Below are positions 41,017 to 55,464 of a stretch of 64,000 nt of DNA, in pieces (within the stretch, counting starts at the first letter, position 1; each line of letters starts with the position of its first letter). The position numbers and the translations under genes are program-made. The stretch comes from Candidatus Doudnabacteria bacterium RIFCSPHIGHO2_01_FULL_46_14 (GTDB lineage Bacteria; Patescibacteriota; Doudnabacteria; UBA920; 2-01-FULL-46-14). Location of the stretch: NCBI GenBank assembly GCA_001779925.1, contig MFEK01000010.1, forward strand, positions 19,377-83,376. The letters run 5' to 3'. The notes under the pieces are model-generated. The model had not been told where the DNA came from. It saw only the letters and a list, made by a program, of their open reading frames with translations, and ran no database searches.

Positions 41017-42186
41017 CTATTGATTATCATGTATTTCTAACGGGGCGAGTCTATGATTTGCTCCAACAACTTCTTTAACTGACCGAAATCCATCAGCTTC
41101 CAATAATTTTACCAAACCCCGTTTAATTTTTTTCGGCAACGAAGGACCTTCATAAATCATACCCGTATAAATTTCCACGAGGCTTGCGCCAGCGCGGATC
41201 TTTTCGTACGCATCCTCAGCGGAAAAAATCCCCCCTGCTCCGATTATCGGTACTCGGCCTTCAAGCTTTTTGTAAAGATAACCGATCACTTCAGTAACTC
41301 TCTTGGCAATCGGGCGGCCAGACAAACCGCCCCCGCCCATGCCCTCAGTGGCAGCGGTATTAGTCGCAATAACCCCGTCAATCTTTGTTTCCAAAACAAT
41401 CTCTGCAATATCATCAAGCTCACCGTCAGTCAGATCAGGTGAGATTTTGAGAAGCAAAGGCCGCCACCCCCACCTAACCTCCTCGCCTCGCCTTCGCTCG
41501 GACGAAGCGGGCCCCCTCAAAGGGGAGGAATTCGTTTGTATTTCCCTCCCCTCGAGGGGGAGGGCTGGGGAGGGGTGATTCAATTTCTGTAATTCCATAA
41601 GCAAATTCCTCAGCTCCTCTTTCCCCTGTAATTCCCGCAGTCCCGGTGTATTTGGAGAACTAACATTGACCACCACATAGTCGGCCAAGGGCGCTAATTC
41701 TGTAAATCCCGTGGCATAATCGCGCAGAGCCTCCTCGTTCGGCGTAATTTTATTTTTTCCTAGATTGACCCCGATCACAAAATCGCGCTTCTCAAGTCTT
41801 TTCAAATTTTTCGCCACTGCCATTGCGCCCATGCTGTTAAATCCCATCCGGTTGATGATCGCCTTATCCGCATCCAGACGAAATAGTCGTGGTTTGGGAT
41901 TGCCCGGCTGCGGCTCAGGGGTCACAGTCCCCACTTCAATAAACCCAAACCCGAGCGCGGCCATGAACCGCGCAAAGCCGCCGGATTTATCATAGCCAGG
42001 TGCAAGGCCGATCGGATTTTTGAATCTGACTCCAAAGACTTCAGTCTCAAGCGATGGATGTTCGTACCGAAACAACGGCGAAAACACTTCGGAAAGTCCC
42101 GAAAAATTCCTGCCCAAAGCCGCCACAGCATTGTGCATGGTTTCTGGCTGGATAGTAAATAAAATCGGCCGCAAAAGTTTATACAT
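41017..42186 (-). CDS. pyrD: dihydroorotate dehydrogenase (class 2-like, with N-terminal extension)
   Basis: FKNPIGLAPGYDKSG..., FIEVGTVTPEPQPGNPKPRLFRL; R13 in-frame. Confidence 0.85.
   Translation of the reverse strand: MYKLLRPILFTIQPETMHNAVAALGRNFSGLSEVFSPLFRYEHPSLETEVFGVRFKNPIGLAPGYDKSGGFARFMAALGFGFIEVGTVTPEPQPGNPKPRLFRLDADKAIINRMGFNSMGAMAVAKNLKRLEKRDFVIGVNLGKNKITPNEEALRDYATGFTELAPLADYVVVNVSSPNTPGLRELQGKEELRNLLMELQKLNHPSPALPLEGREIQTNSSPLRGPASSERRRGEEVRWGWRPLLLKISPDLTDGELDDIAEIVLETKIDGVIATNTAATEGMGGGGLSGRPIAKRVTEVIGYLYKKLEGRVPIIGAGGIFSAEDAYEKIRAGASLVEIYTGMIYEGPSLPKKIKRGLVKLLEADGFRSVKEVVGANHRLAPLEIHDNQ
41464..41578. repeat. repeat family A, locus R13 (inverted pair; first unit with nested hairpin insertion) in-frame within pyrD
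   Basis: cacccccacctaacctcctcgcc[tcgccttcgctcggacgaagcgg]gccccctcaaaggggagg...tttccctcccctcgagggggagggctggggaggggtga. Confidence 0.85.
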
Positions 42187-42982
42187 TGCGGTACTGGTTT
42201 ATCTCATCTCGCAATTTCTTAGCCTCTTTCCCCGGGTCTTTAGCGAAAATTATCGAGCGAGCGGCATTAATTATCATGCCTTTTTTCTCGCTGTTCAGGC
42301 CCGCTTCTACCGCAGCTTTCACATCGCCGCCTTGCGCCCCGATACCGGGCACAAGCAAGGTCATATCGCCCGTGATCTCCCTCACCTTTTTTAACTCTGC
42401 TGGATAGGTCGCACCCACAACTAGCATGCAGTTCTGGTTTTCATTCCATTCGCTCGAGACCTTTTCGGCAACAATCTGCCACAGTGGTTTTTCGTTCGAA
42501 ATCAGATCCTGAAACTCGCCTGCGCCCGTGTTAGAGGTCCGGCACAAAATGATCGAGACCTTATCATAACGAACCAGAAACGGCTGGAGCGCTTCCCGGC
42601 CAAGATAAGGGTGCAGAGTGATCGCGTCAAAACCGAAATAGTCGAAAAATGCAGTCACATAACCCGCATTGGTGTTGCCAATGTCTGCGCGCTTGGCGTC
42701 GCAGATCGTAAAAATCTCCGGGTGCTTCTTATGCAGATAATCCATGGTGAGTTTCAACTCAGTTATTCCGGACTCGCCGCGCGATTCATAAAAAGCCAGG
42801 TTCAGCTTGTAAGCTGCCGCATATTTGTGTGTTTCATTGATAATGTATCTATTGAACGCTAACTGCGGCTGGGACATAGTTTGAAATTCCTGCGGCAATT
42901 TCGTCAGGTCTGAATCAAGTCCTACGCATAACAGAGAATTTATTTCGTCGACACAGGAATTGTATCTATCAATTGGATTCAT
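42179..42982 (-). CDS. pyrF: orotidine-5-prime-phosphate decarboxylase (type 2, long form)
   Basis: 267 aa; ...LLCVGLDSD...; ...ICDAKRADIGNT... motifs. Confidence 0.8.
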   Translation of the reverse strand: MNPIDRYNSCVDEINSLLCVGLDSDLTKLPQEFQTMSQPQLAFNRYIINETHKYAAAYKLNLAFYESRGESGITELKLTMDYLHKKHPEIFTICDAKRADIGNTNAGYVTAFFDYFGFDAITLHPYLGREALQPFLVRYDKVSIILCRTSNTGAGEFQDLISNEKPLWQIVAEKVSSEWNENQNCMLVVGATYPAELKKVREITGDMTLLVPGIGAQGGDVKAAVEAGLNSEKKGMIINAARSIIFAKDPGKEAKKLRDEINQYRNV

Positions 42983-43557
42983 GATTTCCTCCGTTTTAAT
43001 TCTCCTATCACCAAATTTACCAATTTCACAGGATTGCTTTCAAAAATTATTTTCGCCTTACGTTTTTTGGAGGTCTCTTTTAAAAGTCTGGGCAATTCAT
43101 CGGCAAATCCGCCGCTTTTGACGAGCACGCCGATGACCCGGCCGTAATCATGCAAACTGCAAAATTCGTGCATAGTGCCCCAGCGCCCGGCAATGATTAC
43201 GCCCGCATCACACGTAGCAGTAGACATTACGTTCCGGTATTTTCTGGTCACCTCAAGGTCGCGGGCGAAAGGAAAATTTTTCGGCACAAACACTATTTTA
43301 CTGTATACCCGGGGATCATCATCAGGAAAAAATTTACTGTGGTCTTTTTGATTTCTGAGAGGCGAAAAACCCCACACCTCGCCGCCGGATTCATGCGCAC
43401 CGACAGCGGCTGCATAAGGCAGTCCCGGGCAAGCGCCAGTGACGACGATATTTCCAGCTGTGGCAATCGCGCGGCCGATTTTTTCGGACTTCATTGTGGC
43501 TTTGACGATTTCTGCCTCGCCCCCAGCTGAGCCAAAAACTCCGATTTTATATTTCAT
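42979..43557 (-). CDS. LOG/TIGR00725-family Rossmann-fold protein embedded in the pyr operon
   Basis: IGVFGSAGG...; GRWGTMHEF (GGxGTxxE-like). Confidence 0.5.
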   Translation of the reverse strand: MKYKIGVFGSAGGEAEIVKATMKSEKIGRAIATAGNIVVTGACPGLPYAAAVGAHESGGEVWGFSPLRNQKDHSKFFPDDDPRVYSKIVFVPKNFPFARDLEVTRKYRNVMSTATCDAGVIIAGRWGTMHEFCSLHDYGRVIGVLVKSGGFADELPRLLKETSKKRKAKIIFESNPVKLVNLVIGELKRRKS

Positions 43558-44204
43558 ACTTTTTCTTTATTAGCTTCGTGCCAAGCATCAGGGTCTTTAC
43601 TCCAGCTTAGAGCGTTATCCTTTTCCTCATCATTCAAATATTTCTCTTGAGAAGCTAGCTTGATTAAGGTAGAAAGATTGCTGAGTGCAAAAAAATTCAC
43701 GTTGGCATCAGCAAAAGCTTTCTTGGCTTTCTCCATTTCGTAATTAAAAATCGCCAAAACCGCAACAATATTCGCGTCATACTCCCGCTTACAAGCATTC
43801 ACAGAAGAGAGCGAACTCCGGCCTGTTGAAATTAAATCCTCTACAACCAAAACTCTAGCGCCTTTTGCCATTACCCCTTCCACCTGTTTTGCAGCACCGT
43901 AATCCTTTGGTTGGGCCCTGACATATACCAATGATTTTTCTAACTCTGCTGCCAGGAAAGATGCCCAAGGAATGCCAGCTGTTGCAGTGCCTGCTATTAC
44001 ATCGAATTCCAGATTATTTTCTTTGATCAAATCCTTAAATCCTTCCAAAACAACACTTCGCTCTTTTGGATAAGAGATTAAAAGACGATTATCGCAATAA
44101 ATCGGGGCAAGCAATCCCGTATTCCATTCAAACGGTGGATTAACGCTTACTTTCACAGCTTTTATACCCAGTAACAATTTGGCGATAGCTTCTTCTCTGT
44201 TCAT
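43554..44204 (-). CDS. pyrE: orotate phosphoribosyltransferase
   Basis: PRPP-binding motif VLVVEDLISTGRS. Confidence 0.85.
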   Translation of the reverse strand: MNREEAIAKLLLGIKAVKVSVNPPFEWNTGLLAPIYCDNRLLISYPKERSVVLEGFKDLIKENNLEFDVIAGTATAGIPWASFLAAELEKSLVYVRAQPKDYGAAKQVEGVMAKGARVLVVEDLISTGRSSLSSVNACKREYDANIVAVLAIFNYEMEKAKKAFADANVNFFALSNLSTLIKLASQEKYLNDEEKDNALSWSKDPDAWHEANKEKV

Positions 44205-45043
44205 AAACTTTGGACTTTATCTTTAATCGAAACTTTGGCCTGCGGCGAAACAATCGAGTCAGTCGAGAACACGCATTCAGCGAGCTTGCCGATCTGCGCG
44301 GGCGAATCAAACAAAAACAGTCCGTGAACCGCGGCCACGCATATGCGCTTGGCGCCGCAGGCTTTTATTTTCTCAATGCCAGTAATCATCGTGGAACCAG
44401 TACTTATCATATCATCGATTAAAAGCACGTTTTTGTCCTGCACATCAAACTCGCAAACCATTCCTTCGATCGGCCGGTAATCTACCTTACCTTCATACTG
44501 CTTGCGATTCTTTTTCATAAATTTCCCGCCGTGGTTTTTCACGAGGTAGGATGCGCCCTCATCCAAACCAATGATCTCAAAATCCTCGCCGCCGAAAAAA
44601 TCTTTTGCCTGCATGATCAACTCATCTCCCATGGACAGATTTTGAATTTTCAAATTCCCATATTTTTTTTCGCCTTCCTCATTGAGAAAATGACAATCAA
44701 ACGTGATGAGTTTTTCACAGCCCGCGGCCGCTATCAGATTGCACGTTATCGGCGCGCTGGCAATCTCGCCATCAAGGATCTGTTTTTCATGGCGCGCATA
44801 CGGCAGATACGGCGACACCACAGTCACGCGCGCCTTGTGCTCTTTGAGCGCCTCGAGAATGAGGAGGAGTTCTACAAACATGCTGTTTTGTTTGGGATAA
44901 AGGCGATGAAATAGCATGACCTCTTTCCCGGCATACTCCTGGAGATTCGGGATGCGCACATGCGTGTTGCCATCAGGAAATTTGCCGATTTCGACGTTCG
45001 GCTCAAAAAGGTCTGAAAAGTTTGGGGAAACGAGTTTTATCAT
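44201..45043 (-). CDS. prs: ribose-phosphate pyrophosphokinase (PRPP synthase)
   Basis: ...LLIDDMISTGSTM... PRPP motif, N-terminal PRTase-type domain. Confidence 0.9.
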   Translation of the reverse strand: MIKLVSPNFSDLFEPNVEIGKFPDGNTHVRIPNLQEYAGKEVMLFHRLYPKQNSMFVELLLILEALKEHKARVTVVSPYLPYARHEKQILDGEIASAPITCNLIAAAGCEKLITFDCHFLNEEGEKKYGNLKIQNLSMGDELIMQAKDFFGGEDFEIIGLDEGASYLVKNHGGKFMKKNRKQYEGKVDYRPIEGMVCEFDVQDKNVLLIDDMISTGSTMITGIEKIKACGAKRICVAAVHGLFLFDSPAQIGKLAECVFSTDSIVSPQAKVSIKDKVQSL

Positions 45044-45093
45044 ATTTTTGTGCGACCCGTCCCTGCGGCGTCCGCCCTAGGCGGACTGCTGGG

Positions 45094-45118
45094 CAAAAAA
45101 ATAGACCCCATTGGGGTC
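45094..45118 (-). terminator. rho-independent terminator between a short leader transcript and prs
   Basis: gacccc-att-ggggtc hairpin followed on minus strand by T7. Confidence 0.6.
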
Positions 45119-45179
45119 TTATTACACCTTAAGAAAGTTTACGCGGATTGGGCAGTTGAGCTTAGTCATTTCTTCTGGG

Positions 45180-45208
45180 ATCTTACACGAAAAACAGGGG
45201 TTTGTCAA
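45180..45208 (-). promoter_or_regulatory. sigma70-like promoter TTGACA-17-TAAGAT on minus strand
   Basis: Reverse complement of 45203-45208 = TTGACA; of 45180-45185 = TAAGAT; same hexamers as the promoter at 5307. Confidence 0.6.
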
Positions 45209-45224
45209 ACACCCACAAGTTGAA

Positions 45225-45266
45225 TAAAAAAATACAAAAGGGCTGGGAAAACAGGTCCCAGCCCTT
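45225..45266 (-). terminator. rho-independent terminator (gggctggga / tcccagccc stem + T7)
   Basis: Direct reading, minus strand. Confidence 0.65.
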
Positions 45267-45352
45267 TGGGGTGAGTCAAAAAGGTAGCGGAGTTTAGTCT
45301 GAGGCGCGCCAGCTTGGTAAACAGTCTGACGCAGATTGAGGATCCCCTCCTT

Positions 45353-45439
45353 TCATGCCTGCAAAATTTCGGTCTGGCTACCCACGCTCACTCCTTTCAG
45401 GTATGAAATTGGGAATTTCCTGTTGGTCGCGATCTTCAT
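45353..45439 (-). CDS. candidate micro-ORF B (MKIATNRKFPISYLKGVSVGSQTEILQA) with perfect SD AAGGAGG
   Basis: AAGGAGG 6 nt upstream of ATG; lies between ORF A and terminator 45225-45266. Confidence 0.2.
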   Translation of the reverse strand: MKIATNRKFPISYLKGVSVGSQTEILQA

Positions 45440-45442
45440 GGC

Positions 45443-45544
45443 CTACCTCCTTATTCGAAAGAAAAATCCAGAAAGGCTAACTGCTGCGAGCAACTGACGC
45501 CTTTGGTACCATCTGCGGCGAGAGCCGAAATGGCTATTTCCCAT
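45443..45544 (-). CDS. candidate micro-ORF A (MGNSHFGSRRRWYQRRQLLAAVSLSGFFFRIRR; track ORF 45443..45634 extends it upstream) with perfect SD AAGGAGG
   Basis: AAGGAGG 6 nt upstream of internal ATG; its stop overlaps ORF B SD. Confidence 0.2.
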   Translation of the reverse strand: MGNSHFGSRRRWYQRRQLLAAVSLSGFFFRIRR

Positions 45545-45665
45545 CAAGTGCCTCCTTGGAGCTTGGATGATTTTATAATACCGAACTAACCCATAGGAGC
45601 AAAACAAGATACCCACATAAAACAGGTGGCTCATCTAATTTTCAATCAGATGGTAGCAAAACAAT

Positions 45666-45705
45666 GAAAAAGACGGCGACTGCCAGGCAGTGCACCGTCT
45701 TTTTG
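45666..45705. terminator. bidirectional intrinsic terminator (A5-hairpin-T5) after gene 45722..46150
   Basis: aaaaagacggcgactgccaggcagtgcaccgtcttttt. Confidence 0.55.
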
Positions 45706-45721
45706 GATTGGGTTTTAGAGC

Positions 45722-46150
45722 TTAACTAGCTTGTGGCTGATTGCATATCCACGACCTGATAGTCGCTTTCCCAAATATGGGAATTGCCAGCAGGTTGACA
45801 CCGCAGTTTTCCAATCGTATCAACCCGTCGTTATCAATTCTTCCTGCAGTACAAAATCCCGTAAGCACCTTTGATATCTCATTGAGATTCTCAGCCGTGA
45901 TGAATATGCAGTCGGGAATTGTGACAATCGACGTCTCCGGCTGATAAACCGCCACGTACATGAAATCATTGACATCATTGCCCAACCGCGTGTATATCTC
46001 AAACAATGTCACCAAACCCGGACCGTCAGCGAGCACAGTGCCAGAAGGCGGCGGGAACACCTTGGCCTTTGACAGATCAATACCCAGCCAGCGCTTGATA
46101 AAACTTCTAAGCTCAGCCATGTTCATTTCTCCTCTTTGAAATTTGTTCAA
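45722..46150 (-). CDS. hypothetical protein (142 aa; TTG start in track)
   Basis: No family recognised. Confidence 0.4.
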   Translation of the reverse strand: MNKFQRGEMNMAELRSFIKRWLGIDLSKAKVFPPPSGTVLADGPGLVTLFEIYTRLGNDVNDFMYVAVYQPETSIVTIPDCIFITAENLNEISKVLTGFCTAGRIDNDGLIRLENCGVNLLAIPIFGKATIRSWICNQPQAS

Positions 46151-46328
46151 ACGAAAAACGGCCTCTGTTTGAGGCCGCCTGACAAAGTTCGTAAAAACTT
46201 TTACAATTTACAAGCGCTAGCAAATAACCTCAAACAGGGAACCGTTTGAGTGACGCAACATTTGATGCTGTGGAATATTTGCTTCATATTTTGATTATAT
46301 TCCTCTATTATAGACCCGTCAAAGTTAA

Positions 46329-46369
46329 TTCACCCCTCCCTCAATCCCTCCCCCTCAAGGGGAGGGAAG
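46329..46369. repeat. repeat family A, locus R14; supplies the last codons and stop of gene 46355..46852
   Basis: ttcacccctccctcaatccctccccctcaaggggaggg; minus-strand reading gives ...RFLPSP-stop. Confidence 0.85.
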
Positions 46370-46852
46370 AAAACGGGGATCATATCGCTTTACTAACTCG
46401 AAACTCCCAAACATCACTCCTGCATAAAACAAATCCCCGAGGAGAGTATTACGGAAAAATGGGAGGGCGTTTAGGTAGGATTGGATTTGGCCGGAAAGAT
46501 CATGGCTGTACATAGTTGGCTCGTAAAGGAAAACTAAGTTTGTAATTAGATAAAAGAGAGCAGAGCTGGCCACTGTACCGCCAATCATATTTAGCACACT
46601 CTTATTATTTCTCAGCCATAAACCAATAAGCCCTGACAAAATAAAACTGCTGTAAACCGTGGCTCGCGACTGCCACGAATCAAATCCAATAAAATAATCT
46701 GAAACGACCATGGCGGCGACTGGTACAAGCAATGCAAATTTTTTATTGAGATAAGTGCCGCCGAACAATGCGATAGCAGAAATAGGAGCGAAGTTTGCTG
46801 GGTGAGGCAGGAATCTTAAAATGGCACCAATGAGGACTAAAATATACTCCAT
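46355..46852 (-). CDS. small multi-TM membrane protein (DUF6580-like)
   Basis: ...LRFLPHPANFAPISAIALFGGTY... N-terminus; 5 TM. Confidence 0.45.
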   Translation of the reverse strand: MEYILVLIGAILRFLPHPANFAPISAIALFGGTYLNKKFALLVPVAAMVVSDYFIGFDSWQSRATVYSSFILSGLIGLWLRNNKSVLNMIGGTVASSALFYLITNLVFLYEPTMYSHDLSGQIQSYLNALPFFRNTLLGDLFYAGVMFGSFELVKRYDPRFLPSP

Positions 46853-46968
46853 ATAGAATTTCTAATTGTTCTAATTGACCTAATTTCTAAACAATGACCA
46901 ATGCACAATTTCTAAATTTAGGAATTGGGATTTATTTAGGTCAATTAGAAATTAGAATAATTAGAAAT
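46853..46968. repeat. AT-rich repeat family B, copy Y (116-bp imperfect palindrome)
   Basis: tttctaattgttctaattgacctaa...ttaggtcaattagaaattagaataattagaaa (arms are reverse complements). Confidence 0.55.
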
Positions 46969-47376
46969 TTACTTCTGCACTTTCTCCACTACCCACTCGA
47001 TGATATCGCCCTTTTTGGTTTCAAGCTTGTCCGCGCCAACCTGGGAATCCTTGCCGTTTATGTAGAGCTTCCAAAAATGCTCGGCATCAGGCTTCAGTCC
47101 GCCAATCGATTCCACCATCACGCCAAAATCATACTGCTTAAATTCCACCTTATCGTTTACCGCGTTTTTGAGAAGCTGAAAGGCGTTCGCGCCCTCTTTG
47201 CCTGGATAACGGACGTAATCAGATAAAACAATAGTTTTTCCAGCAAGAGCGGGCGCAACTGGATAAAGCCCCTGCTGATAATTTACAGGTGTACGGTTTT
47301 GATACCAATAAACTCCGCCCCCAACTGCGGCAAGTACCAAAACGATAATTAGAATCTTCTTCCATTGTTTATTCAT
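46969..47376 (-). CDS. DUF4430 (transcobalamin-like, cobalamin-binding) domain protein with N-terminal TM anchor
   Basis: ...FWKLYINGKDSQVGADKLETKKGDIIEWVVEKV C-terminal DUF4430 signature. Confidence 0.55.
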   Translation of the reverse strand: MNKQWKKILIIVLVLAAVGGGVYWYQNRTPVNYQQGLYPVAPALAGKTIVLSDYVRYPGKEGANAFQLLKNAVNDKVEFKQYDFGVMVESIGGLKPDAEHFWKLYINGKDSQVGADKLETKKGDIIEWVVEKVQK

Positions 47377-47414
47377 TTGGAATTTATTTAGAAATTAGAA
47401 TAATTAGTAATTTA
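47377..47414. repeat. AT-rich repeat family B, copy Z
   Basis: aatttatttagaaattagaataattagtaattta, near-identical to right arm of copy Y. Confidence 0.5.
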
Positions 47415-47966
47415 CTAGTAATCTATTCCTCTCTCCGCAAGCCGACCCTGGTAATACGGATGCTTGATCATTTTCATTTCCGTAACCAGATCCGCCGCTT
47501 CTAATAACTCATTATATTTATTGTGCCCGGTAAGGGCAAGAGGCACTATATGCTCACGTGCCAAATCCATTATCCCCTTTACATCCGCGACCGTTAAAAG
47601 CTCCACCTCAATCGCAGAAATCAGCTCGTCTGCGATAACCAGGTCATAGTCCCCTGATTTTAAACTTAATTGTAGCCACTCTAAACCCTCTTGAGCTGCA
47701 GTTTTATGGATCTCTTTGTCCTTGGTATCGCCCAAAATGCCCACAAAGCCCCTGCCCAGGATTTTCACAGTTATGCCGGGAATGGATTTGAGAATTTCGA
47801 TCTCACTCGACAATGGCCACTCGCCTGATTCGGTTGCAGTCGCGGCTTTAACAAACTGGCAAAACAGCACGCGCTTTCCCGCACCCGCCGCGCGCACTGC
47901 CAACCCCACCGCGGCCGTAGTCTTGCCTTTCCCATCACCAATGTAAATGATATTCAAGCCCTTCAT
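47415..47966 (-). CDS. cobO: ATP:cob(I)alamin adenosyltransferase (CobO/BtuR/CobA type)
   Basis: IIYIGDGKGKTTAAVGLAVRA P-loop, ...DLVIADE...; start at MKGLNII. Confidence 0.8.
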   Translation of the reverse strand: MKGLNIIYIGDGKGKTTAAVGLAVRAAGAGKRVLFCQFVKAATATESGEWPLSSEIEILKSIPGITVKILGRGFVGILGDTKDKEIHKTAAQEGLEWLQLSLKSGDYDLVIADELISAIEVELLTVADVKGIMDLAREHIVPLALTGHNKYNELLEAADLVTEMKMIKHPYYQGRLAERGIDY

Positions 47967-48565
47967 GCTTTTTTCACAAAAAACATTATCCAATTCTCAT
48001 TTTTGCGAACAGGATGAGGTTTGCTCCCTTTCTTCAGGGTCTTAAATCCGTTTTGTTGCAAAAGTTTTTTGAAACCCTGCAAGGTATGGTACGAAAAAAA
48101 TCTTTTCATCCCAGGATAAGCATCTTCCACCAACCCTTCCCATGGCCGCGATTTGGATTTTAGAGAAATAAAAGCGACGCCGCTTTCTTTCAAGACCTTA
48201 TGCAAAGATTTAAAAACTACAGGCAATTGTTTTTTTGGAATATGCAAAAGAGAAGCACACGCCCAAATCCCATCAAACAGTTTTTCCGGCAGTTTCATTT
48301 TGAGCATATCCATCTTCTGAAATCTTGCTTTTGGCACCAGCTTTCTCGCGACCTTCAACATTGCGGAGGACGCATCAATTCCGAGATAATTGAATTTATC
48401 TTTTATAAAATACTCCGCTTCATGACCGGTGCCACAGCCGACCTCAAGTATGTTTTTGCCTTTCAACATTCTTTTAAAAATGCGGAACTCCGGCATCCAG
48501 AAATCCCTGCGCCTTTGTGCATACTCCTCTGCTACCTTGGCATAAGTTTTAAGAGTTGCGTTCAT
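47963..48565 (-). CDS. class I SAM-dependent methyltransferase
   Basis: ILEVGCGTGHEAEYF motif I. Confidence 0.65.
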   Translation of the reverse strand: MNATLKTYAKVAEEYAQRRRDFWMPEFRIFKRMLKGKNILEVGCGTGHEAEYFIKDKFNYLGIDASSAMLKVARKLVPKARFQKMDMLKMKLPEKLFDGIWACASLLHIPKKQLPVVFKSLHKVLKESGVAFISLKSKSRPWEGLVEDAYPGMKRFFSYHTLQGFKKLLQQNGFKTLKKGSKPHPVRKNENWIMFFVKKA

Positions 48566-48617
48566 AAATTTTCTTATTCATCGTTTATTCACGATCGTAA
48601 ATGGAAACCGAATCTTA

Positions 48618-49037
48618 TTAATTATCAAAAAAATATTTTTTGGTCCTTATAGCTTCCAGATAAATTGGAACGTTGGCAAACAGGGGGTGAGGCAAATTGT
48701 CCAAATCATACCAGGCCCAGTCCTCGGATTTGTCAGGCTCCAGGTTCTGCGGCTCCCCGCTTTTCCAGTCAGCAATTATACCGATATTCACGAAATGCGC
48801 TGGTGGATACGTTTTGAGATTGGAAAGACTCAAAAACCTTAGATTATCTATTTCCATGCCGGTTTCCTCACGGACCTCTCGCCTCGCGCACTGCTCAAAT
48901 GATTCCATATTGTCGAGCCCGCCGCCGGGAGGGGCATATTGTCCTTCGCCATGAGCGCCTTTTCTTTTGCCTAGCAAAACTTTCCCGTCCTTCAGCACCA
49001 TTACTCCGATTCCAACTTTGGGAATATTGTCGTTCAC
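48618..49037 (-). CDS. NUDIX hydrolase
   Basis: NUDIX box GGGLDNMESFEQCARREVREETG. Confidence 0.75.
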   Translation of the reverse strand: MNDNIPKVGIGVMVLKDGKVLLGKRKGAHGEGQYAPPGGGLDNMESFEQCARREVREETGMEIDNLRFLSLSNLKTYPPAHFVNIGIIADWKSGEPQNLEPDKSEDWAWYDLDNLPHPLFANVPIYLEAIRTKKYFFDN

Positions 49038-49486
49038 AAGATTTCGAAAAGCTCTCTTAATTCTCTAATCCTATGCGTCGGCTGGCCTGTTTCCGCATTG
49101 GGCAGTTCCTGTGCATACTTTCCTTTTTCCAACCAAACTGTCGGATGGCCATGCTCGTTTCCGTATTTTATACCGCGCACTGTTCGATCATCAACAATCA
49201 TTATTTCCGAACGAGGCAAATCCCAATTCCTGACAATTTCATCGAGAAATTTATCTTTATACTCTGCGGTCACAAAAAATAAATCCAAATACTGACGCAA
49301 TGGCGAATTTTCGATAAGCTGAGTTCGTCCTTCCACCGTATGATTGCCGCTCACCTTGGAGACCAAAGCCATCCTACAGCCTTTTTCTTTACAGAATCGT
49401 AAAATCTCTTTTGCACCATCGGCTTCGCGGTTCAAATCATTGTCGTAAAGCGTTCGCCCCCAATCAAAAATAACGGCTTTGATCAT
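49034..49486 (-). CDS. HAD-superfamily hydrolase
   Basis: MIKAVIFDWGRTL motif I (DxD/DxG-type), ...MIVDD... Confidence 0.6.
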   Translation of the reverse strand: MIKAVIFDWGRTLYDNDLNREADGAKEILRFCKEKGCRMALVSKVSGNHTVEGRTQLIENSPLRQYLDLFFVTAEYKDKFLDEIVRNWDLPRSEIMIVDDRTVRGIKYGNEHGHPTVWLEKGKYAQELPNAETGQPTHRIRELRELFEIL

Positions 49487-49495
49487 ACCTGTATT

Positions 49496-49531
49496 TCTCT
49501 CCCCCTCGTGAGGGGGATCTGGAGGGGGTTA
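49496..49531. repeat. repeat family A, locus R15 (abuts stop codon of DUF559 gene 2)
   Basis: tctctccccctcgtgagggggatctggagggggtta. Confidence 0.75.
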
Positions 49532-49909
49532 TCATAAATTTAGCTTGTGAATTAAATCATCAAAGACACCGGAAGTATTGTGCATGATATCACGATTACT
49601 GTATCTAACAATCTGGCAACCTAGTGATTTCAGATAATTTTCTCTCATAATATCATTCCCCATTGTGGAGGCTTCTGCATGCGTATCGCCATCAATCTCG
49701 ATAATATATTTTTTTTCTGGACAATAAAAATCGACTACATAATCTCCAATTGCATGCTGGCGCCGGAATTTTAAATTATAGAACTGCTTGCCCCCAACTT
49801 TGGTCCAGAATATTTGTTCTGCAGGGGTCATATCGCGACGCAATCTTCTGCGTATGGAAATGGTTTTTGGAGAACCTGATTTTGGCCCGCGAGATTGATT
49901 GAATTTCAT
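49532..49909 (-). CDS. DUF559 (Vsr-like endonuclease fold) protein, paralog 2
   Basis: ...HAIGDYVVDFYCPEKKYIIEIDGDTH...LGCQIVRYSNRDI... Confidence 0.7.
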   Translation of the reverse strand: MKFNQSRGPKSGSPKTISIRRRLRRDMTPAEQIFWTKVGGKQFYNLKFRRQHAIGDYVVDFYCPEKKYIIEIDGDTHAEASTMGNDIMRENYLKSLGCQIVRYSNRDIMHNTSGVFDDLIHKLNL

Positions 49910-49943
49910 AACCTCCCCTAACCCCTCCTCACGAGGAGGGGAA
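49910..49943. repeat. repeat family A, locus R16 (abuts start codon of DUF559 gene 2; inverted relative to R15)
   Basis: aacctcccctaacccctcctcacgaggaggggaa. Confidence 0.75.
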
Positions 49944-49951
49944 CTAATGCG

Positions 49952-52483
49952 CTACCCGCACTTACTGAACCCGCAGAGGTCGCATTTGAGGCATCCCTCG
50001 GCCATCATCAGCATATTGCCGCAATCCGGACAGGCCGGAGCGTGGCCGAGATTGGCAATGGAGGTTTTGACTTCTAGTTCTGCCTCGCCAGAACTCCCCC
50101 CCGCCCCCTCTTTGGTAAAAGAGGGGGAGACTGATTCAACCTGAGGCGTTTCGTCTTTTCCGAATTTCAGCCCCAGCTCTGTCTGGCCGCGCTTGATGTG
50201 GCTTTCCAAAACCTGGCCGATGGCATCCGGCAGAGAATGAATCGTGCCGCCATTGGCAAAGATAATGTCCGGGCCGCGGATGCCTTTGAGCTGATCGATT
50301 ATTTCCGTGGTCGCAGTGCCGGTGCGCAGAGCCAGGGAAATGAGTCGGCAGATCGCTTCAGTCTGCGCGTGGAAAAAACCGCCCGCTTTGCCAAGACTGG
50401 AGAAGACCTCAAACGGGCCGTGCTCGTCCTCGTTGATCGTCACAAACAGATTGCCGTACGAGGTACGCGTGCGGTAAGTCACGCCCCGCATCACATCCGG
50501 CCGCTCACGCGGAATGGTTTTGTAATTGTTCGAGCCGTTGACGATTTTAGCACTTAAAATTTGCTCGACTTTTTCGGCAACCTTATTTTCTCCCATAGAA
50601 GCTGACATGCTCATGTGTTCCATGCCTGGGGCAAGCGATTTGGCTTTATCGAGGTTCTTATTGAGGTTCAGTACCTGGACTTCGCGTGAGCCATCGCGGT
50701 ACAAGGTGCAGCCTTTGCAGCCCAGTTTCCAGGCCATGATATAGCCATCCTCAATGTCCTGAACAGTGGCTTCATGCGGAAAATTGATGGTTTTGGAAAT
50801 GGAGTTCTCTACGTATTTCTGGAACGCGCCCTGAGCTTTGATGTGATCCTGCGCGGAAATATCCATGGCCACGCGGAACGTATCTTTGACCTCTTGAGGA
50901 ATCCCCGCGATATTTTCCACAGATCCTTCCTGGATAATCTGATTTTTAATTTCTTCCGAGATGCCATGCTTGACGAGGGCGGCTTCCAGATAGCGGTTCA
51001 AATATTTATAAGTATGGCCATCTTTGTCCTGTTTGGTAAAAGCCAGGGCAAAGTTCGGCTCAATCCCGGAACTGGTATCAAAGAACATGGAGATTGAACC
51101 GGTCGGTGCAACTGTGGTGACCATGGTGTTGCGCCGTTTTATGCCCTGGATGGCCCAGGTCGAGTGTTCCCACAAAGGAAATTCTGCTTTTTCCGCGGCC
51201 AGGGCGACAGATGTGTTGTGCGATGACTCCTGAATGGTTTTCATGACCAGCTCACCGGTTTCAAAGCCCTTATCAGAATCATAACGCACATTCATTTGGT
51301 AAAGCATATCTGCATAACCCATGACGCCGAGGCCGAGTCTGCGGGTATTGTGGGACATCTCCTGCACCTCGCGCACCGGGTAGTCGAACAGATCAATGAC
51401 ATTGTCGAGAAAACGCGTGGACACCATGGACACATGCTCGAGGCGCTTGAGATCCAGCTGGCCGTCTTTTACAAAAGCCGCGAGATTGATCGAGCCAAGA
51501 TTGCAGACATCATAAGGCGGCAGACCCTGCTCGCCGCACGGATTGGTGGCCTCGATCGGGGTTTTCGGCATGGTGTTGCCGCGGTTGAACGCATCGAGAA
51601 ATATGACTCCCGGCTCGCCATTGTGCCAGGCATTCTGCACGATCTCATTGTAAAGCTCTTTGGCGGTCATATTGAGCTCTTCGATATTTACGACCACGCC
51701 AAAACGGTCGCGGGTGATACGCCGCGGCTTCATTTTTTCGCCCTGGAAGCGGCAGTACCACTGCTCATTGGGCCGCTCGCTCACCGCTTTCATGAATTCA
51801 TCAGTCATGCCCACGCTGATGTTAAAATTGCGAATGTCACCTTCCACGCGCTTGCAATGCACAAAATCGAGAATATCCGGATGATCAACCGGCAAAATCG
51901 CCATGTTCGCGCCATGCCTGCCCTGCTGTTTTATCACGCCAAAGGCCTGGTTGTAGACTTGCAGGAACGAAACCGGACCAGAGGCCATCCCTACCGAGGC
52001 TTTGACCACAGTGCCGGCAGGCCTGAGCCTGCCAAAAGAAAAACCCAAACCGCTACCGGCTTTTTGGAGGAGCGCCGCGTCCTTCAAAGTCTTGAAAATC
52101 CCTTCCATGCTGTCCTCGATAGGGAGGACTATGCAGTTAGCCACGACCGGCGAAGGTGCGCCGGCATTGGTAATGGTCCGGCCGGCCGGCGTAAACTCTT
52201 TGTGAGCCACAATCTCAAAAAATTCTTTTTCCCAGTAGCGGATCTTATCGGCAGGAAGGCCGTAGTTTTTGTCAGCACCGGCTACCGCATGGGCAATGCG
52301 GTGGATCATTTCAGCCGGGGTTTCCTGGGTGCCATCCTCGCGTTTTACGAGGTAGCGCTTTTTCATCATCCGCAGGGCATTCTCGGAAAAAGAATCATTT
52401 ACTTTTTTTGCCAAATCCGCGCTCAAAAAATCGCAGTTTTGGATTTCGACCATTATTTCTTTTCTTTTGGTTTGTGTGGCCAT
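49952..52483 (-). CDS. nrdJ: ribonucleotide reductase, class II (adenosylcobalamin-dependent) type
   Basis: N-terminal ...SENALRMMKKRYLVKREDGTQETPAEMIHRIAHAVA...; active-site NPCGEQ; C-terminal CxxC...CxxCxxC tail; no nrdB nearby; R17 in-frame in the C-terminal tail. Confidence 0.8.
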   Translation of the reverse strand: MATQTKRKEIMVEIQNCDFLSADLAKKVNDSFSENALRMMKKRYLVKREDGTQETPAEMIHRIAHAVAGADKNYGLPADKIRYWEKEFFEIVAHKEFTPAGRTITNAGAPSPVVANCIVLPIEDSMEGIFKTLKDAALLQKAGSGLGFSFGRLRPAGTVVKASVGMASGPVSFLQVYNQAFGVIKQQGRHGANMAILPVDHPDILDFVHCKRVEGDIRNFNISVGMTDEFMKAVSERPNEQWYCRFQGEKMKPRRITRDRFGVVVNIEELNMTAKELYNEIVQNAWHNGEPGVIFLDAFNRGNTMPKTPIEATNPCGEQGLPPYDVCNLGSINLAAFVKDGQLDLKRLEHVSMVSTRFLDNVIDLFDYPVREVQEMSHNTRRLGLGVMGYADMLYQMNVRYDSDKGFETGELVMKTIQESSHNTSVALAAEKAEFPLWEHSTWAIQGIKRRNTMVTTVAPTGSISMFFDTSSGIEPNFALAFTKQDKDGHTYKYLNRYLEAALVKHGISEEIKNQIIQEGSVENIAGIPQEVKDTFRVAMDISAQDHIKAQGAFQKYVENSISKTINFPHEATVQDIEDGYIMAWKLGCKGCTLYRDGSREVQVLNLNKNLDKAKSLAPGMEHMSMSASMGENKVAEKVEQILSAKIVNGSNNYKTIPRERPDVMRGVTYRTRTSYGNLFVTINEDEHGPFEVFSSLGKAGGFFHAQTEAICRLISLALRTGTATTEIIDQLKGIRGPDIIFANGGTIHSLPDAIGQVLESHIKRGQTELGLKFGKDETPQVESVSPSFTKEGAGGSSGEAELEVKTSIANLGHAPACPDCGNMLMMAEGCLKCDLCGFSKCG
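50094..50129. repeat. repeat family A, locus R17 (variant) in-frame in nrdJ tail
   Basis: ctcccccccgccccctctttggtaaaagagggggag; encodes ..SPSFTKEGAGGSSGE.. Confidence 0.7.
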
Positions 52484-52519
52484 GTGATTTTAATTAATAA
52501 TTGATAAGTTTTTCTCTGG

Positions 52520-52602
52520 TTCCCCTCCCTCGAGGGGAGGGGTAAGGGGAAGGTGATATTTAATTTTCCACCCCCACCTAACCTCCCCCCTCAAGGAGGA
52601 GG
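52520..52602. repeat. repeat family A, locus R18 (inverted pair, tails inward) between nrdR and nrdJ
   Basis: ttcccctccctcgaggggaggggtaaggggaaggtga...ttccacccccacctaacctcccccctcaaggaggagg. Confidence 0.85.
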
Positions 52603-52615
52603 AATACATACACAA

Positions 52616-53062
52616 TCATAACTTCTGCAACTCTTTTTTGAATTCCTCTATATCTTCAAATTGACGGTAGACAGAAGCGAAACGGATATAGGCGACCTGG
52701 TCGAATTTCTTGAGTTTTTTTACCACAATATTGCCGATTTCCTTTGATTCAATCTTGCCATTCTCCAATTTCTTCTGAATCTCCTGTTCAATCTCGGACA
52801 CCAGTTGGCGGAAATTGTCATGAGTAATCGGACGTTTCTCCAAAGCCTTATGGAGTCCTGCCTCCAGCTTTTCGCGAGCATACGGCTCAGTCCGACCGTC
52901 CCGTTTGGCCACCACGAGGTCGAGAATTTCTACCTCTTCATAGGTCGAGAACCTCCCCGAGCAGGATTCGCACTCACGCCTTCGCCTAATCGAAAGCCCG
53001 TCCGAGGCAACCCGGCTGTCTATGACTTTGGTATCTTCTTTTGAGCAGAAAGGGCAGTTCAT
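52616..53062 (-). CDS. nrdR: transcriptional repressor NrdR (zinc ribbon + ATP-cone)
   Basis: MNCPFCSKEDTKVIDSR...CESCSGRFSTYE... Confidence 0.9.
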   Translation of the reverse strand: MNCPFCSKEDTKVIDSRVASDGLSIRRRRECESCSGRFSTYEEVEILDLVVAKRDGRTEPYAREKLEAGLHKALEKRPITHDNFRQLVSEIEQEIQKKLENGKIESKEIGNIVVKKLKKFDQVAYIRFASVYRQFEDIEEFKKELQKL

Positions 53063-53174
53063 TTCATCTTAATTTAAGGAATTTTGGGGACAAAAAAGAG
53101 AGAGGCCTCCAGTTTCTTATATTCCAGCTTAAAAACTACAATCGGTTGGTTTTTGTATCAGGGGTTTTTGCCAA

Positions 53175-53224
53175 ACCACTACATATAGTGGTCTATGTAC
53201 TCAACTTATCCCTATATGTAGTTT
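53175..53224. promoter_or_regulatory. tandem candidate NrdR boxes upstream of nrdR
   Basis: accactacatatagtggt (53175-53192, near-perfect palindrome matching consensus acaCwAtATaTwGtgt) and ccctatatgtagttt (53210-53224); shared core ACTACATATAG; centres about 34 bp apart. Confidence 0.5.
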
Positions 53225-53461
53225 CTGTCAAATCCCCGATTTTTCGGGATTTTTCCGACTTTTCCACAAAAGAGCACGGCAACAATACAACTCCCCCCTT
53301 GCCTGCCCGCAATCGCTGACGCTCAAGCGTCTTGCAGGCGGGCGAGAGGAGAGTACCCCGAGCTCTTCTCGAGGGGGAGAGAGAAAGGTGAATTTACGGC
53401 TCACACGCGCTTGAGCCGTTAGTTGACGAATGTAACATCACAATGGCAAAATAAGGCACTT

Positions 53462-53497
53462 GCCTAAATAGCAAGATTCAAAACGCGCCTAAATAGC
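53462..53497 (+). promoter_or_regulatory. direct repeats GCCTAAATAGC x2 (25 bp apart) just upstream of SD of gene 53512
   Basis: Direct reading. Confidence 0.3.
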
Positions 53498-53511
53498 GCA
53501 CAGGAGGACCT

Positions 53512-54672
53512 ATGAAAAACTATTCGCCATTTCTGGACTTTGCGCCTACAGTCGTGCTCAAGCCCGAGGCAGTTGCGGAACGAATGAAGTCTAACCCTTT
53601 TGACCTGTTCGATGATGCCAACCATTTTCCAGAGGTCAGAGAAAAAATCGTCGGCCACTTAAAATCCGGCTTCGGAGGGCCCTATCGAAGCCTTTTACAA
53701 TATGAATGGGCCGAAAGCCGAATCCTTGGACTGTTTCACGACGGTGATACTCTTTGGCGGCCCTTGCTGGAATGGTATTGCTCAGGCTACGGAAGTAAAG
53801 ATGTAGGATCTGTACGGCCAATCGAGTTTGCAATCAGCATGGCCAGAGACCAACCCTACCTAATTACAGAAATAACTAAGGTAGTTTGCCCCAACGCGAA
53901 GTATAACAACTGCTATTGGAACTCTCCTTCCATGAAAGTGTTTTTAGACGACTGCTGGGCAAGTCTGATTCGTGACGTCGAGGCTGGACATGAATCCAAG
54001 ACAACCATCGCGACTTTTCAGGCAATCAGACGAGTCGCCCGCCTTCTCATCGAGGTCAAAGACACCACATGGCTGCCAAAGCTCGCGGAAATACGAGACA
54101 TGCTCAAAAACATCCATCCGAGATGGATACCGCCGACAGGAAAGGACGAATTTGAGGTACCGATAGTGGGTGGTGTCATTACTCACACCATTCGCATTCT
54201 CGAGGAGGAAGCAGCGGATTGGATGAAAGACCCGCTGGCGGAAGGGATTCGGGAGAGAATCTACGCCAAACCCGAACCCAATGTCATAGTCAATGTGGAA
54301 TACCCGGAAAAATGGCAGGCAGGTTCACCTATGCTTCTCTTAGTTCAAGTGATCTTTAAAAACGTTGCCCCATCGCGTCCCGACCTTCCGAAAATCATCA
54401 TGGAAGATTTTACAGCTGCTATTCGCACGGACGGCTTTGAAAAAGTGTCTGCAGGGGGTCCCTGGGAAAAGCTTCGAGGATACAACTTTCGGTTCCTTGG
54501 ACAAGGCTTTTATCAAGCCTTCGGAGAAAAGACTCCTGAGGTTTTCGAATCAGCATTTACGCTAGTTCCCACTGGCGGCATTAACCGCTTCCACCTATGC
54601 TTAGTATACGAAGACTCGCGCCATGCAGTGTGGGATGTAGGAAAAACCGCTGGTTATGTACTCTGCGAATAA
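53512..54672 (+). CDS. hypothetical protein (386 aa)
   Basis: Strong SD CAGGAGG; followed by strong terminator; no family recognised. Confidence 0.5.
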   Translation: MKNYSPFLDFAPTVVLKPEAVAERMKSNPFDLFDDANHFPEVREKIVGHLKSGFGGPYRSLLQYEWAESRILGLFHDGDTLWRPLLEWYCSGYGSKDVGSVRPIEFAISMARDQPYLITEITKVVCPNAKYNNCYWNSPSMKVFLDDCWASLIRDVEAGHESKTTIATFQAIRRVARLLIEVKDTTWLPKLAEIRDMLKNIHPRWIPPTGKDEFEVPIVGGVITHTIRILEEEAADWMKDPLAEGIRERIYAKPEPNVIVNVEYPEKWQAGSPMLLLVQVIFKNVAPSRPDLPKIIMEDFTAAIRTDGFEKVSAGGPWEKLRGYNFRFLGQGFYQAFGEKTPEVFESAFTLVPTGGINRFHLCLVYEDSRHAVWDVGKTAGYVLCE

Positions 54673-54801: not shown

Positions 54802-55221
54802 TTACTTTTGTGGAAACATGAAGGAAAAAGAGCTAGGGTGAACGATTGGAATGTTTCGAAATTGTCTCAGTCGAAGCAAATGTTTGTCCATTGATACTAT
54901 TAAATTTGCTCCTGCGGCTAAAGCGCATTCCAAAATTTTGTCATCATCTGGATCGTCCTTGATTACCTGTAAGGTTTCCTTCGGAATAACTTGGTGAATA
55001 TATTCATCGATAATAATCCGCAGATTTGTAACTGTCCTGTGGTCTGCCAATTTCTCATTTACCCAAATTTGTAATTTTTCTTCGATTTCGTCTTTGATGT
55101 CAGGAGAAATAAATACTATATAATTAAAATCCGGGCTGAAAATTTCCCGAAACATCCGAAAAACGAATCCGCCTTCCCGTAATGCGGCCAGATAAATATT
55201 TGTGTCTAGTACAACGCGCAA
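54802..55221 (-). CDS. PIN-domain (VapC-like) toxin
   Basis: MRVVLDTNIYLAAL...; acidic residues D6, E?, D typical PIN. Confidence 0.75.
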   Translation of the reverse strand: MRVVLDTNIYLAALREGGFVFRMFREIFSPDFNYIVFISPDIKDEIEEKLQIWVNEKLADHRTVTNLRIIIDEYIHQVIPKETLQVIKDDPDDDKILECALAAGANLIVSMDKHLLRLRQFRNIPIVHPSSFSFMFPQK

Positions 55222-55224
55222 AGC

Positions 55225-55464
55225 TTAACCAAAATACTTTTCTACGTCATCATCAGTTTTGATCCCTAGCTTTTCAAATGCCGGGGCAAAGCCCTTTTGA
55301 ACCTGTGACCATTGGGACAAAAACAGCTGATAACGCAGGGTTTCTTTTACATATTGACTCACGGGGATATCCTGCTCTTTGGCATACCGAATCAGTTCCC
55401 GCCGTAAGGATTTTGGCAATGATACACTTAAAATTTCGGTCTTTTCTCGTTTTATACTTGGCAT
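55225..55464 (-). CDS. ribbon-helix-helix (CopG/VapB-like) antitoxin
   Basis: 79 aa, ...ILSVSLPKSLRRELIRYAKEQDIPVSQYVKETL... RHH pattern; 3 bp upstream of PIN gene. Confidence 0.65.
   Translation of the reverse strand: MPSIKREKTEILSVSLPKSLRRELIRYAKEQDIPVSQYVKETLRYQLFLSQWSQVQKGFAPAFEKLGIKTDDDVEKYFG

Follow-up and report, generated by a model that had tools for sequence, protein, structure and literature searches.

A candidate cobalamin salvage-and-use gene string with a class II ribonucleotide reductase in a Doudnabacteria genome

Gene content of the locus

Bacteria of the Candidate Phyla Radiation (CPR) have minimal genomes and depend on other cells, and how they acquire their cofactors is largely unknown. 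Here, we describe a gene string from one such bacterium, Candidatus Doudnabacteria bacterium RIFCSPHIGHO2_01_FULL_46_14, in which a ribonucleotide reductase (RNR) gene, nrdJ, and the regulatory gene nrdR are followed by a cobalamin adenosyltransferase gene, cobO, and by genes encoding two proteins with domains of unknown function (DUF), DUF4430 and DUF6580. We read this region as a probable module for the salvage and use of cobalamin (vitamin B12). The stretch of DNA analyzed, henceforth the window, is 64 kb long (contig MFEK01000010.1, positions 19,377 to 83,376), and coordinates are counted from its first letter. Gene coordinates and strands were read from the open reading frames (ORFs) of the window and from profile searches. 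In order of transcription, the string contains the following features:

53176-53231, minus strand: NrdR-box promoter, heading the string
52616-53062, minus strand: nrdR (TIGR00244, 187.5 bits against a cutoff of 124.65)
49952-52483, minus strand: nrdJ (TIGR02504, NrdJ_Z, 640.2 bits against a cutoff of 399.95)
49532-49909, minus strand: DUF559 endonuclease-like gene (profile search)
49034-49486, minus strand: HAD-family hydrolase gene (profile search)
48618-49037, minus strand: Nudix hydrolase gene (profile search)
47963-48565, minus strand: gene for a class I S-adenosylmethionine (SAM) methyltransferase, with all profile matches below the family cutoffs
47415-47993, minus strand: cobO (PF02572, 168.3 bits)
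46969-47376, minus strand: gene for the DUF4430 protein (PF14478, 46 bits against a cutoff of 23.8)
46355-46852, minus strand: gene for the DUF6580 membrane protein (PF20221, 163.9 bits against a cutoff of 27)

The nine genes from nrdR to DUF6580 are co-directional, every gap measures 132 bp or less, and two junctions overlap: the HAD and Nudix hydrolase genes share 4 nt, and the 3' end of the SAM methyltransferase gene extends 31 nt into the start of cobO. The interval between cobO and nrdJ spans 1.96 kb and is occupied by four genes, encoding the SAM methyltransferase, the Nudix hydrolase, the HAD hydrolase and the DUF559 protein. The presence of the two hydrolase genes varies among relatives. 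A corrinoid-related role for the SAM methyltransferase was considered and rejected, since its match to CpaM (57 bits against a cutoff of 180) reflects generic class I similarity and only two relatives have the gene.

The ribonucleotide reductase belongs to class II

A previous reading of this DNA from its letters and ORFs only, hereafter the sequence-only reading, had proposed an nrdJ-type RNR preceded by nrdR and unaccompanied by nrdB, and assignment of the RNR class by hidden Markov models (HMMs) had been set beforehand as a check. The assignment is class II: the protein exceeds the cutoff of the NrdJ model TIGR02504 (640 against 400 bits) and falls below that of the class I model TIGR02506 (NrdE_NrdA; 318.1 against 341.05 bits), and no nrdA/E, nrdB/F or nrdD/G gene was found among the window ORFs scanned. 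The proposal thus passes this check. PRK08665 matches the protein across the full profile length with 875.6 bits, which is below its cutoff of 961, and a TSCPD domain and a C-terminal Zn-ribbon are present. By curated HMM cutoffs, the RNR of the window is a class II NrdJ, and its dependence on adenosylcobalamin (AdoCbl) is predicted. Since the only RNR seen in the window is predicted to need AdoCbl, DNA synthesis would hinge on imported B12. The protein encoded by nrdR is composed of a Zn_ribbon_NrdR domain (PF22811, 74.5 bits) and an ATP-cone (PF03477, 83.9 bits), as assigned with Pfam.

The adenosyltransferase and the DUF4430 protein

The cobO product matches PF02572 at profile positions 2-172 of 172 and carries a P-loop, GDGKGKTT, in its translation. 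It scores below the cutoffs of the equivalog models TIGR00708 (136 against 167.75 bits) and PRK05986 (144.7 against 185 bits). The profile match identifies it as a divergent ATP:cob(I)alamin adenosyltransferase of the CobA/CobO/BtuR type, whose exact equivalence is not certified by the equivalog models.

The adjacent gene encodes the DUF4430 protein. The sequence-only reading had placed it directly upstream of cobO; the two genes are indeed neighbors, but in the direction of transcription DUF4430 lies downstream (3') of cobO. A profile check of the domain, likewise set beforehand, holds at the score given above, with PF14478 covering residues 62-131. The structural model of the protein, with a predicted local distance difference test (pLDDT) score of 91, is composed of a single N-terminal helix (residues 3-26) and a small beta domain. 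It superposes on the DUF4430 crystal structure 3u7z with a root-mean-square deviation (rmsd) of 1.3 A over 73 columns, and on the beta-domains of transcobalamin, haptocorrin and intrinsic factor with an rmsd of 1.7-2.9 A at a probability of about 1; for transcobalamin 5no0 and 4zrp the values are 1.7-1.8 A and 1.00. The earlier description of a membrane-anchored DUF4430 protein with a transcobalamin-like fold is therefore borne out by the domain match, the N-terminal helix and both superpositions. A single-sequence search against the Protein Data Bank (PDB) had returned a chance-level match only (pseudoazurin), and the fold search was needed.

The fold of the window's DUF4430 domain is that of the cobalamin-binding C-terminal beta-domain of transcobalamin, intrinsic factor and haptocorrin, and the DUF4430 domain has been noted in TCN proteins (PMC4350170). 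Unlike transcobalamin, the window protein lacks the alpha/alpha-toroid alpha-domain and is tethered to the membrane instead. In the literature searched, we found no functional work on bacterial DUF4430, including any cobalamin-binding assay. Two related loci, L029 (4117-7513) and L031 (1941-4476), present a cobalamin riboswitch, DUF4430, a 406-697-aa alpha/alpha-toroid (SQHop_cyclase_C) protein and DUF6580; the toroid and DUF4430 correspond to the two domains of transcobalamin, here encoded by separate genes.

DUF6580, a candidate transporter with the fold of an S-component

The gene directly following DUF4430 had been overlooked in the sequence-only reading. It encodes the DUF6580 protein, which is probably the transporter that this reading had proposed to look for. 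The family is large, with 2299 relatives at E ≤ 1e-5, and we found no literature on it. The AlphaFold2 model (pLDDT 85.6) is a six-helix membrane protein. In a Foldseek search, its eight best PDB matches are S-components of energy-coupling factor (ECF) transporters (4huq_S, RibU including 5kc0, and FolT) with TM-scores of 0.45-0.64; ThiT and PanT appear lower in the list, and probabilities reach 1.00.

A profile built from 20 DUF6580 sequences has as its best PDB match 6fnp_A, the CbrT chain of ECF-CbrT, although the match is weak (E = 0.015). An hhalign comparison of DUF6580 with the N-terminal halves of CbrT likewise gives a weak link, with 77% probability and E = 2e-5 over 73 columns. Two motifs, P-x-P-N-[FV]-x-P and S-[DN]-x-x-[IL]-G-F, are common to both. 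The evidence from fold and profiles suggests that DUF6580 works like an S-component and that it may be a remote relative of CbrT. A single-sequence search of DUF6580 against the PDB gave a chance-level match only (KtrA), and profile and fold searches were needed here as well.

BtuM of Thiobacillus denitrificans is an S-component-like B12 transporter that works alone, and such solitary transporters are documented in organisms that have no ECF module (PMC6072759; Rempel et al. 2018). Like DUF6580, it is small (∼20 kDa), has the S-component fold, is implicated in B12 uptake and occurs without an evident ECF module, as far as the window and the locus flanks were viewed for DUF6580. DUF6580 differs in lacking a conserved Cys that would match the cobalt ligand of BtuM, and BtuM has no DUF4430 partner. 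We rejected DUF6580 as a relative of BtuM, since there is no match at E ≤ 10 and no conserved Cys.

Linkage of the uptake pair across genomes

Most of the weight of the evidence comes from the comparison of genomes. A scan with one genome per species yielded 72 DUF6580 loci from distinct genomes. DUF4430 is found immediately upstream of DUF6580, on the same strand, in 59 of the 72 loci, and two more have one gene between them. The median gap within the pair is 14 nt, with an overlap in 14 cases. In 27/72 loci nrdJ is present upstream on the same strand, usually with nrdR before it, and cobO lies upstream in 23/72. Three loci (L032, L033 and L062) have the uninterrupted order nrdR-nrdJ-DUF4430-DUF6580, while the genes between nrdJ and cobO vary by genome. 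The pair is conserved across the CPR superphylum, in which cofactor acquisition is poorly understood.

Riboswitches of the cobalamin clan (RF00174, RF01482, RF01689) were found above gathering score, directly upstream and on the same strand, at 14 of the 57 loci scanned. In eleven of these, from Saccharibacteria-type or other CPR members, the flank showed no nrdJ; in a Gemmataceae genome, a riboswitch of 85.7 bits precedes a stand-alone DUF6580; and in the remaining two the riboswitch is located between nrdJ and DUF4430.

DUF6580 is also found in Gemmataceae, Leptospira and Proteobacteria-labelled metagenome-assembled genomes (MAGs). Outside the CPR, it occurs without a recognizable Pfam DUF4430 neighbor (L069, 1167-2781; L066, 3001-7570; L058, 6501-7451). 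Its company there is nevertheless suggestive: a gene for a Peripla_BP_2 (BtuF/FhuD family) protein comes next in a Planctomycetaceae locus, a TonB-dependent receptor precedes it in a Leptospirales locus, and the stand-alone copy of the Gemmataceae locus has the strong cobalamin riboswitch mentioned above.

Comparison with the Lactobacillus CbrT cluster

CbrT of Lactobacillus delbrueckii is encoded in an nrdJ-cbrS-cbrT-pduO cluster and transports cobalamin (PMC5997447; Santos et al. 2018; PDB 6FNP). The gene context was used as an argument for B12 specificity before transport was shown; CbrT needs an ECF module and also takes up cobinamide (PMC5997447). Lactobacillus-type contigs (L073-L078) recovered with a CbrT fragment query have the order nrdJ - DUF4430 - ECF_trnsprt - Cob_adeno_trans, with a DUF4430 protein of 130-132 aa (70 bits), a gap of 1-3 nt between DUF4430 and the S-component gene, and a PduO-type adenosyltransferase at the end. 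Because the gene between nrdJ and the CbrT-like S-component in these contigs is a DUF4430 gene, the Lactobacillus cbrS is a DUF4430 gene. The DUF4430 protein of the window shares 26% identity over 50 residues with the Lactobacillus-type CbrS. The DUF4430 identity of cbrS suggests that a piece of the Lactobacillus ECF-CbrT system has been left out of biochemical work. In the recovered contigs the CbrT-like gene (∼5001-5524) is truncated or split, with 79-102 aa and, in L077, a second piece of 86 aa, against 182 aa at full length; these may be pseudogenes or assembly errors.

The L. delbrueckii cluster and the window both combine an AdoCbl-dependent RNR with a cobalamin adenosyltransferase and a small membrane-anchored DUF4430 protein immediately before a membrane protein with the S-component fold, the window order at the slot equivalent to cbrS being cobO - DUF4430 - DUF6580. 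On the other hand, the membrane protein of the window is a DUF6580 protein, with only a remote profile relation to the CbrT family (PF12822/PF07155), its adenosyltransferase is of the CobO/BtuR rather than the PduO type, and its RNR is of the NrdJ_Z/TSCPD type and not RNR_Alpha/RNR-II_ins (RTPR-like). Moreover, the window cluster is headed by nrdR and NrdR boxes, and an ECF module was not found in the 64 kb. By analogy of gene content, the window module can be regarded as a four-function analogue of the L. delbrueckii cluster with three non-orthologous replacements. While nrdR-nrdJ and cobO are known in kind, the DUF4430-DUF6580 pair varies the CbrS-CbrT arrangement with a family of no assigned function.

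A proposed route for cobalamin salvage, and its alternatives

We consider the region to be a cobalamin salvage-and-use module, composed of nrdR-nrdJ and cobO-DUF4430-DUF6580, with a probability of about 0.72. The DUF4430 protein, tethered by one helix to the outer face of the membrane, would capture cobalamin via its transcobalamin beta-domain-like fold; DUF6580 would take the corrinoid through the membrane; its adenosylation by CobO would yield AdoCbl for NrdJ; and NrdR would throttle at least nrdR-nrdJ according to the dATP/ATP balance. The families and folds, the linkage of the genes and of the riboswitches in relatives, and the conservation of the boxes are observed; that DUF4430 binds B12, that DUF6580 transports it, that the string is transcribed as a whole and what energizes the transport are inferred. 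The evidence for a B12-related role of the DUF4430-DUF6580 pair is strong and purely computational. The idea of an organism that scavenges, adenosylates and uses cobalamin, already put forward in the sequence-only reading, gains from DUF6580 as a candidate transporter, from the linkage of the pair to nrdJ and cobO, and from the riboswitches in relatives. In DUF4430 and DUF6580, the CPR would have a concrete two-gene candidate for a B12 importer.

Several observations weigh against this interpretation. The Foldseek E-values of DUF6580 are only ∼0.1-1.7, the profiles connect it weakly with CbrT (E = 0.015; 77% probability), and the ECF_trnsprt model PF12822 scores 17.5 bits (E = 0.004) on DUF6580, below its cutoff of 30.7, so that the protein should not be filed in the CbrT family. 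No EcfT, EcfA or ABC ATPase was found in the window, and ABC-ATPase-like ORFs occur within 7 kb in only 5/72 DUF6580 loci, never adjacent to the gene. Most of the loci come from one superphylum, and their counts are not independent events. No cobalamin riboswitch was detected in the window, either at the Rfam gathering score or at E ≤ 5 over positions 45000-54000, where only spurious hits of miRNA models on hairpins appeared, nor was one detected in the 20 scanned loci with both nrdJ and cobO; this lineage thus gives no evident sign that B12 controls the uptake pair. Since such riboswitches control cobalt transporters as well, their linkage alone leaves the substrate unfixed. Finally, there are no experiments on DUF6580 or CbrS, and our searches found nothing relevant on B12 uptake in the CPR or on the combination of transcobalamin, S-component and riboswitch.

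The control of cobalt as well as corrinoid transporters by these riboswitches, which is established knowledge, opens the question whether the pair imports something other than complete cobalamin, that is cobalt, cobinamide or another tetrapyrrole. The uptake of cobinamide by CbrT (PMC5997447) and the Peripla_BP_2 protein of the Planctomycetaceae locus, whose family includes siderophore and B12 binders, point the same way. The fold of DUF4430, however, is that of a cobalamin-binding transcobalamin beta-domain, the cluster partners are an adenosyltransferase and an AdoCbl enzyme, and no cob/cbi synthesis gene was found in the window. To our knowledge, CPR bacteria generally lack corrin synthesis, which would make the import of cobalt pointless. 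We therefore regard a different substrate as improbable.

As regards the salvage of complete cobalamin, DUF6580 could be an ordinary group II ECF S-component that uses a shared EcfAA'T module encoded elsewhere, as CbrT does, with DUF4430 as an optional helper; nothing would then be mechanistically new. The S-component fold of DUF6580, its remote profile relation to CbrT and the requirement of CbrT for an ECF module (PMC5997447) are in keeping with this explanation. Because group II modules are encoded away from their S-components, the absence of ECF genes from the 7-kb flanks is expected under it. The absence of an ECF component from the window speaks against it, as do the occurrence of DUF6580 in Gemmataceae, Leptospira and Proteobacteria-labelled MAGs and the documented existence of BtuM as a solitary B12 S-component-like transporter (PMC6072759), but none of these points is decisive. 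Apart from the lack of a visible module, the explanation fits all the observations. We think this explanation rather unlikely, although clearly less so than a different substrate.

A farther-reaching version of the cobalamin salvage reading, which we put forward tentatively and hold to be somewhat unlikely, is that DUF4430 and DUF6580 constitute a widespread cobalamin uptake system of the CPR (Patescibacteria) that works without an ECF ATPase module, some Planctomycetes, Leptospira and others having DUF6580 on its own. An S-component-like permease would here act together with an extracytoplasmic binding protein tethered to the membrane. B12 would be sandwiched between DUF4430 and the permease in the manner of the two domains of transcobalamin, and adenosylation by CobO together with binding to NrdJ would pull uptake. 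If this is true, it could no longer be held as a rule that S-component transporters lack a separate substrate-binding protein, and functions would be assigned to two DUF families and to the Lactobacillus CbrS.

The nrdR promoter and its NrdR boxes

The upstream region of nrdR contains the following elements:

53203-53231, minus strand: putative nrdR promoter, composed of TTGACA (53231-53226), a 17-nt spacer and TAAGTT (53208-53203), as read from the sequence
53209-53224, minus strand: NrdR box 1 (AAACTACATATAGGGA), 18/22 against the consensus, inside the spacer between -35 and -10
53176-53191, minus strand: NrdR box 2 (CCACTATATGTAGTGG), 19/22 against the consensus, just 3' of the -10

The NrdR-box consensus is reportedly the 16-bp sequence acaCwAtATaTwGtgt, against which the whole 64 kb was scanned with a weighted score (maximum 22). 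Only three sites reach 17/22 or more, and two of these form the nrdR promoter pair. The boxes are separated by a 17-bp spacer (33 bp from center to center) and have in common an exact 10-mer, CTACATATAG, in opposite orientation (53179-53188 on the plus strand and 53212-53221 on the minus strand); with at most one mismatch, this 10-mer is matched five times in the window, where 1.14 matches would arise by chance. The third site, CGACTATATATAGGTC (22288-22303, 17/22), lies in the 5' portion of a 298-aa unannotated ORF immediately downstream of ndk and is probably a chance match, as it is a single box without a partner.

The boxes are conserved. At least one is found within 250 bp upstream of nrdR in 19/20 related loci with enough upstream sequence, against a background of 99 hits in 860 kb (one per 8.7 kb), and a tandem pair at a start-to-start offset of 32-33 bp is present in about ten of them. 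When the sequences upstream of nrdR from ten related genomes are aligned, TTGAC does not vary, the 17-nt spacer holds box 1, a TAxxxT -10 follows box 1, and box 2 is located directly 3' of the -10. The two boxes and the autoregulated nrdR-nrdJ unit, both part of the sequence-only reading, are thus corroborated, the former by their scores, the shared 10-mer and conservation in relatives, the latter by this phylogenetic footprinting.

NrdR boxes are most commonly spaced by 15-16 bp; function both in vitro and in vivo has been found for spacers of 14-17 bp, and a second class spans 24-27 bp (PMC12051234). The 17-bp spacer of the window falls within the published 14-17 bp class, and the pair overlaps the -35 and -10 elements. 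Since the box pair overlaps a conserved promoter and its spacer is in the functional range, promoter occlusion, including autoregulation of nrdR, is the expected mechanism for nrdR-nrdJ: box 2 would cover the likely start site, and dATP/ATP-loaded NrdR would keep RNA polymerase off the promoter, with repression of both genes.

The same layout is known from the nrdRJ operon of Streptomyces coelicolor (PMC9110341; Rozman Grinberg et al. 2022; PMC12051234), the structural reference for NrdR (PMC12051234), in which nrdR likewise comes first and is followed by a class II RNR gene, and tandem 16-bp partially palindromic boxes of the short functional spacer class overlap the promoter. The spacer differs, being 17 bp in the window and 16-17 bp in Doudnabacteria-type loci rather than the commonest 15-16 bp, and so does the host, a CPR bacterium in which NrdR binding is predicted from sequence. 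The NrdR half of the module is therefore textbook; it extends the operator architecture, with a 16-17 bp spacer, to a CPR lineage.

A GAGAG(G)CT ... T-run element in the nrdR 5' leader (∼53085-53125, minus strand) is conserved in most of the ten aligned relatives, ∼20-40 nt ahead of the start codon. It looks like a weak hairpin with a U-tract behind it and could be a leader attenuator or a translation signal.

Transcription units, repeats and the DUF559 gene

The hairpins in spacers of the string include the following:

52520-52541 and 52581-52602: G+C-rich palindromes ("R18") in the nrdR-nrdJ spacer, forming one ∼80-nt hairpin (-53.6 kcal/mol, z = -3.2)
46857-46969: A+T-rich inverted-repeat hairpin (∼110 nt, -29 kcal/mol, z = -5.1)

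That the repeat pair R18 fills the nrdR-nrdJ spacer had been seen from the sequence and is recovered here as the two palindromes. The strong hairpins at the nrdR/nrdJ, nrdJ/DUF559 and DUF559/HAD junctions raise the question whether the string is composed of at least two independent transcription units, with NrdR controlling only nrdR-nrdJ and with cobO-DUF4430-DUF6580 expressed constitutively from a promoter of its own. Several further observations agree with such a division: the genes between nrdJ and cobO differ by genome, in L032 and L033 the uptake pair comes directly after nrdJ and still has a riboswitch to itself, no NrdR box is found near cobO or DUF4430, and promoter-like hexamers are present inside cobO and in the DUF4430-DUF6580 spacer. 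Against this stand the close co-directional packing of all nine genes and the location of the first terminator-like sites only downstream of DUF6580, on the same strand, at 46250-46229 and 46180-46156. The G+C-rich hairpins lack U-tracts and are absent from the terminator scan, and we rejected them as intrinsic terminators that would split the string. Separate units are a serious contender, at somewhat less than even odds. The matter touches regulation only and leaves the functional reading as a salvage module unchanged. Since the intervening genes vary and the uptake pair of some relatives has its own riboswitch, NrdR control of the uptake genes can only be inferred.

G+C-rich palindromes like CCCCTCCCTCGAGGGGAGGG occur at 46345-46368, 49496-49516, 49919-49940, 52520-52541, 52581-52602 and 53363-53382, where they mark several gene junctions as well as the DUF6580 end and one position 5' of the nrdR promoter. 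A further copy lies in frame within nrdJ (∼50093-50130) and encodes SPSFTKEGAGG; it falls in the hypervariable linker that joins the TSCPD domain to the C-terminal Zn-ribbon. At this position, nrdJ of the relative L056 has PSLIKEGAGG. These palindromes look like repetitive extragenic palindromic (REP)-like elements that are tolerated in a coding linker.

Inverted repeats of 35 nt (49498-49532 and 49908-49942; 74% complementary) flank the DUF559 gene, which is present in only some relatives, at times with extra copies elsewhere in the locus. It is an accessory gene and probably an insertion, and these features suggest that a mobile or selfish element has inserted between nrdJ and the downstream genes.

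In relatives the median DUF4430-DUF6580 gap is 14 nt; in the window it is stretched to 116 bp by the A+T-rich hairpin, which is made of inverted copies of a 25-nt A+T-rich unit, TTAGAAATTAGAATAATTAGAAATT. This unit stands behind the stop codons of both cobO (47388-47412) and DUF4430 (46945-46969) and recurs in inverted orientation in the carA-pyrC spacer (39648-39672); no such recurrence is expected by chance.

Neighboring genes

About 1.3 kb downstream of the B12 module, the minus strand carries a complete de novo pyrimidine set (34330-45043), composed of genes for phosphoribosyl pyrophosphate (PRPP) synthetase, pyrE, a SLOG/LOG-like gene, pyrF, pyrD, pyrC, carA, carB and pyrB. The PRPP synthetase and pyrE calls were made from the translations and from phmmer recovery in relatives, not from Pfam. 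Together with nrdR-nrdJ, this set gives a nucleotide-metabolism string of ∼19 kb, an unusual feature in a CPR genome; ndk is located further on (22448-23041). On the other side, between ftsA-ftsZ and the nrdR region, a PIN-domain gene (54802-55221) and a small upstream ORF (55225-55464), both on the minus strand, look like a toxin-antitoxin pair. The ftsZ gene ends at 56231, ftsA and ftsZ having been named from their translations.

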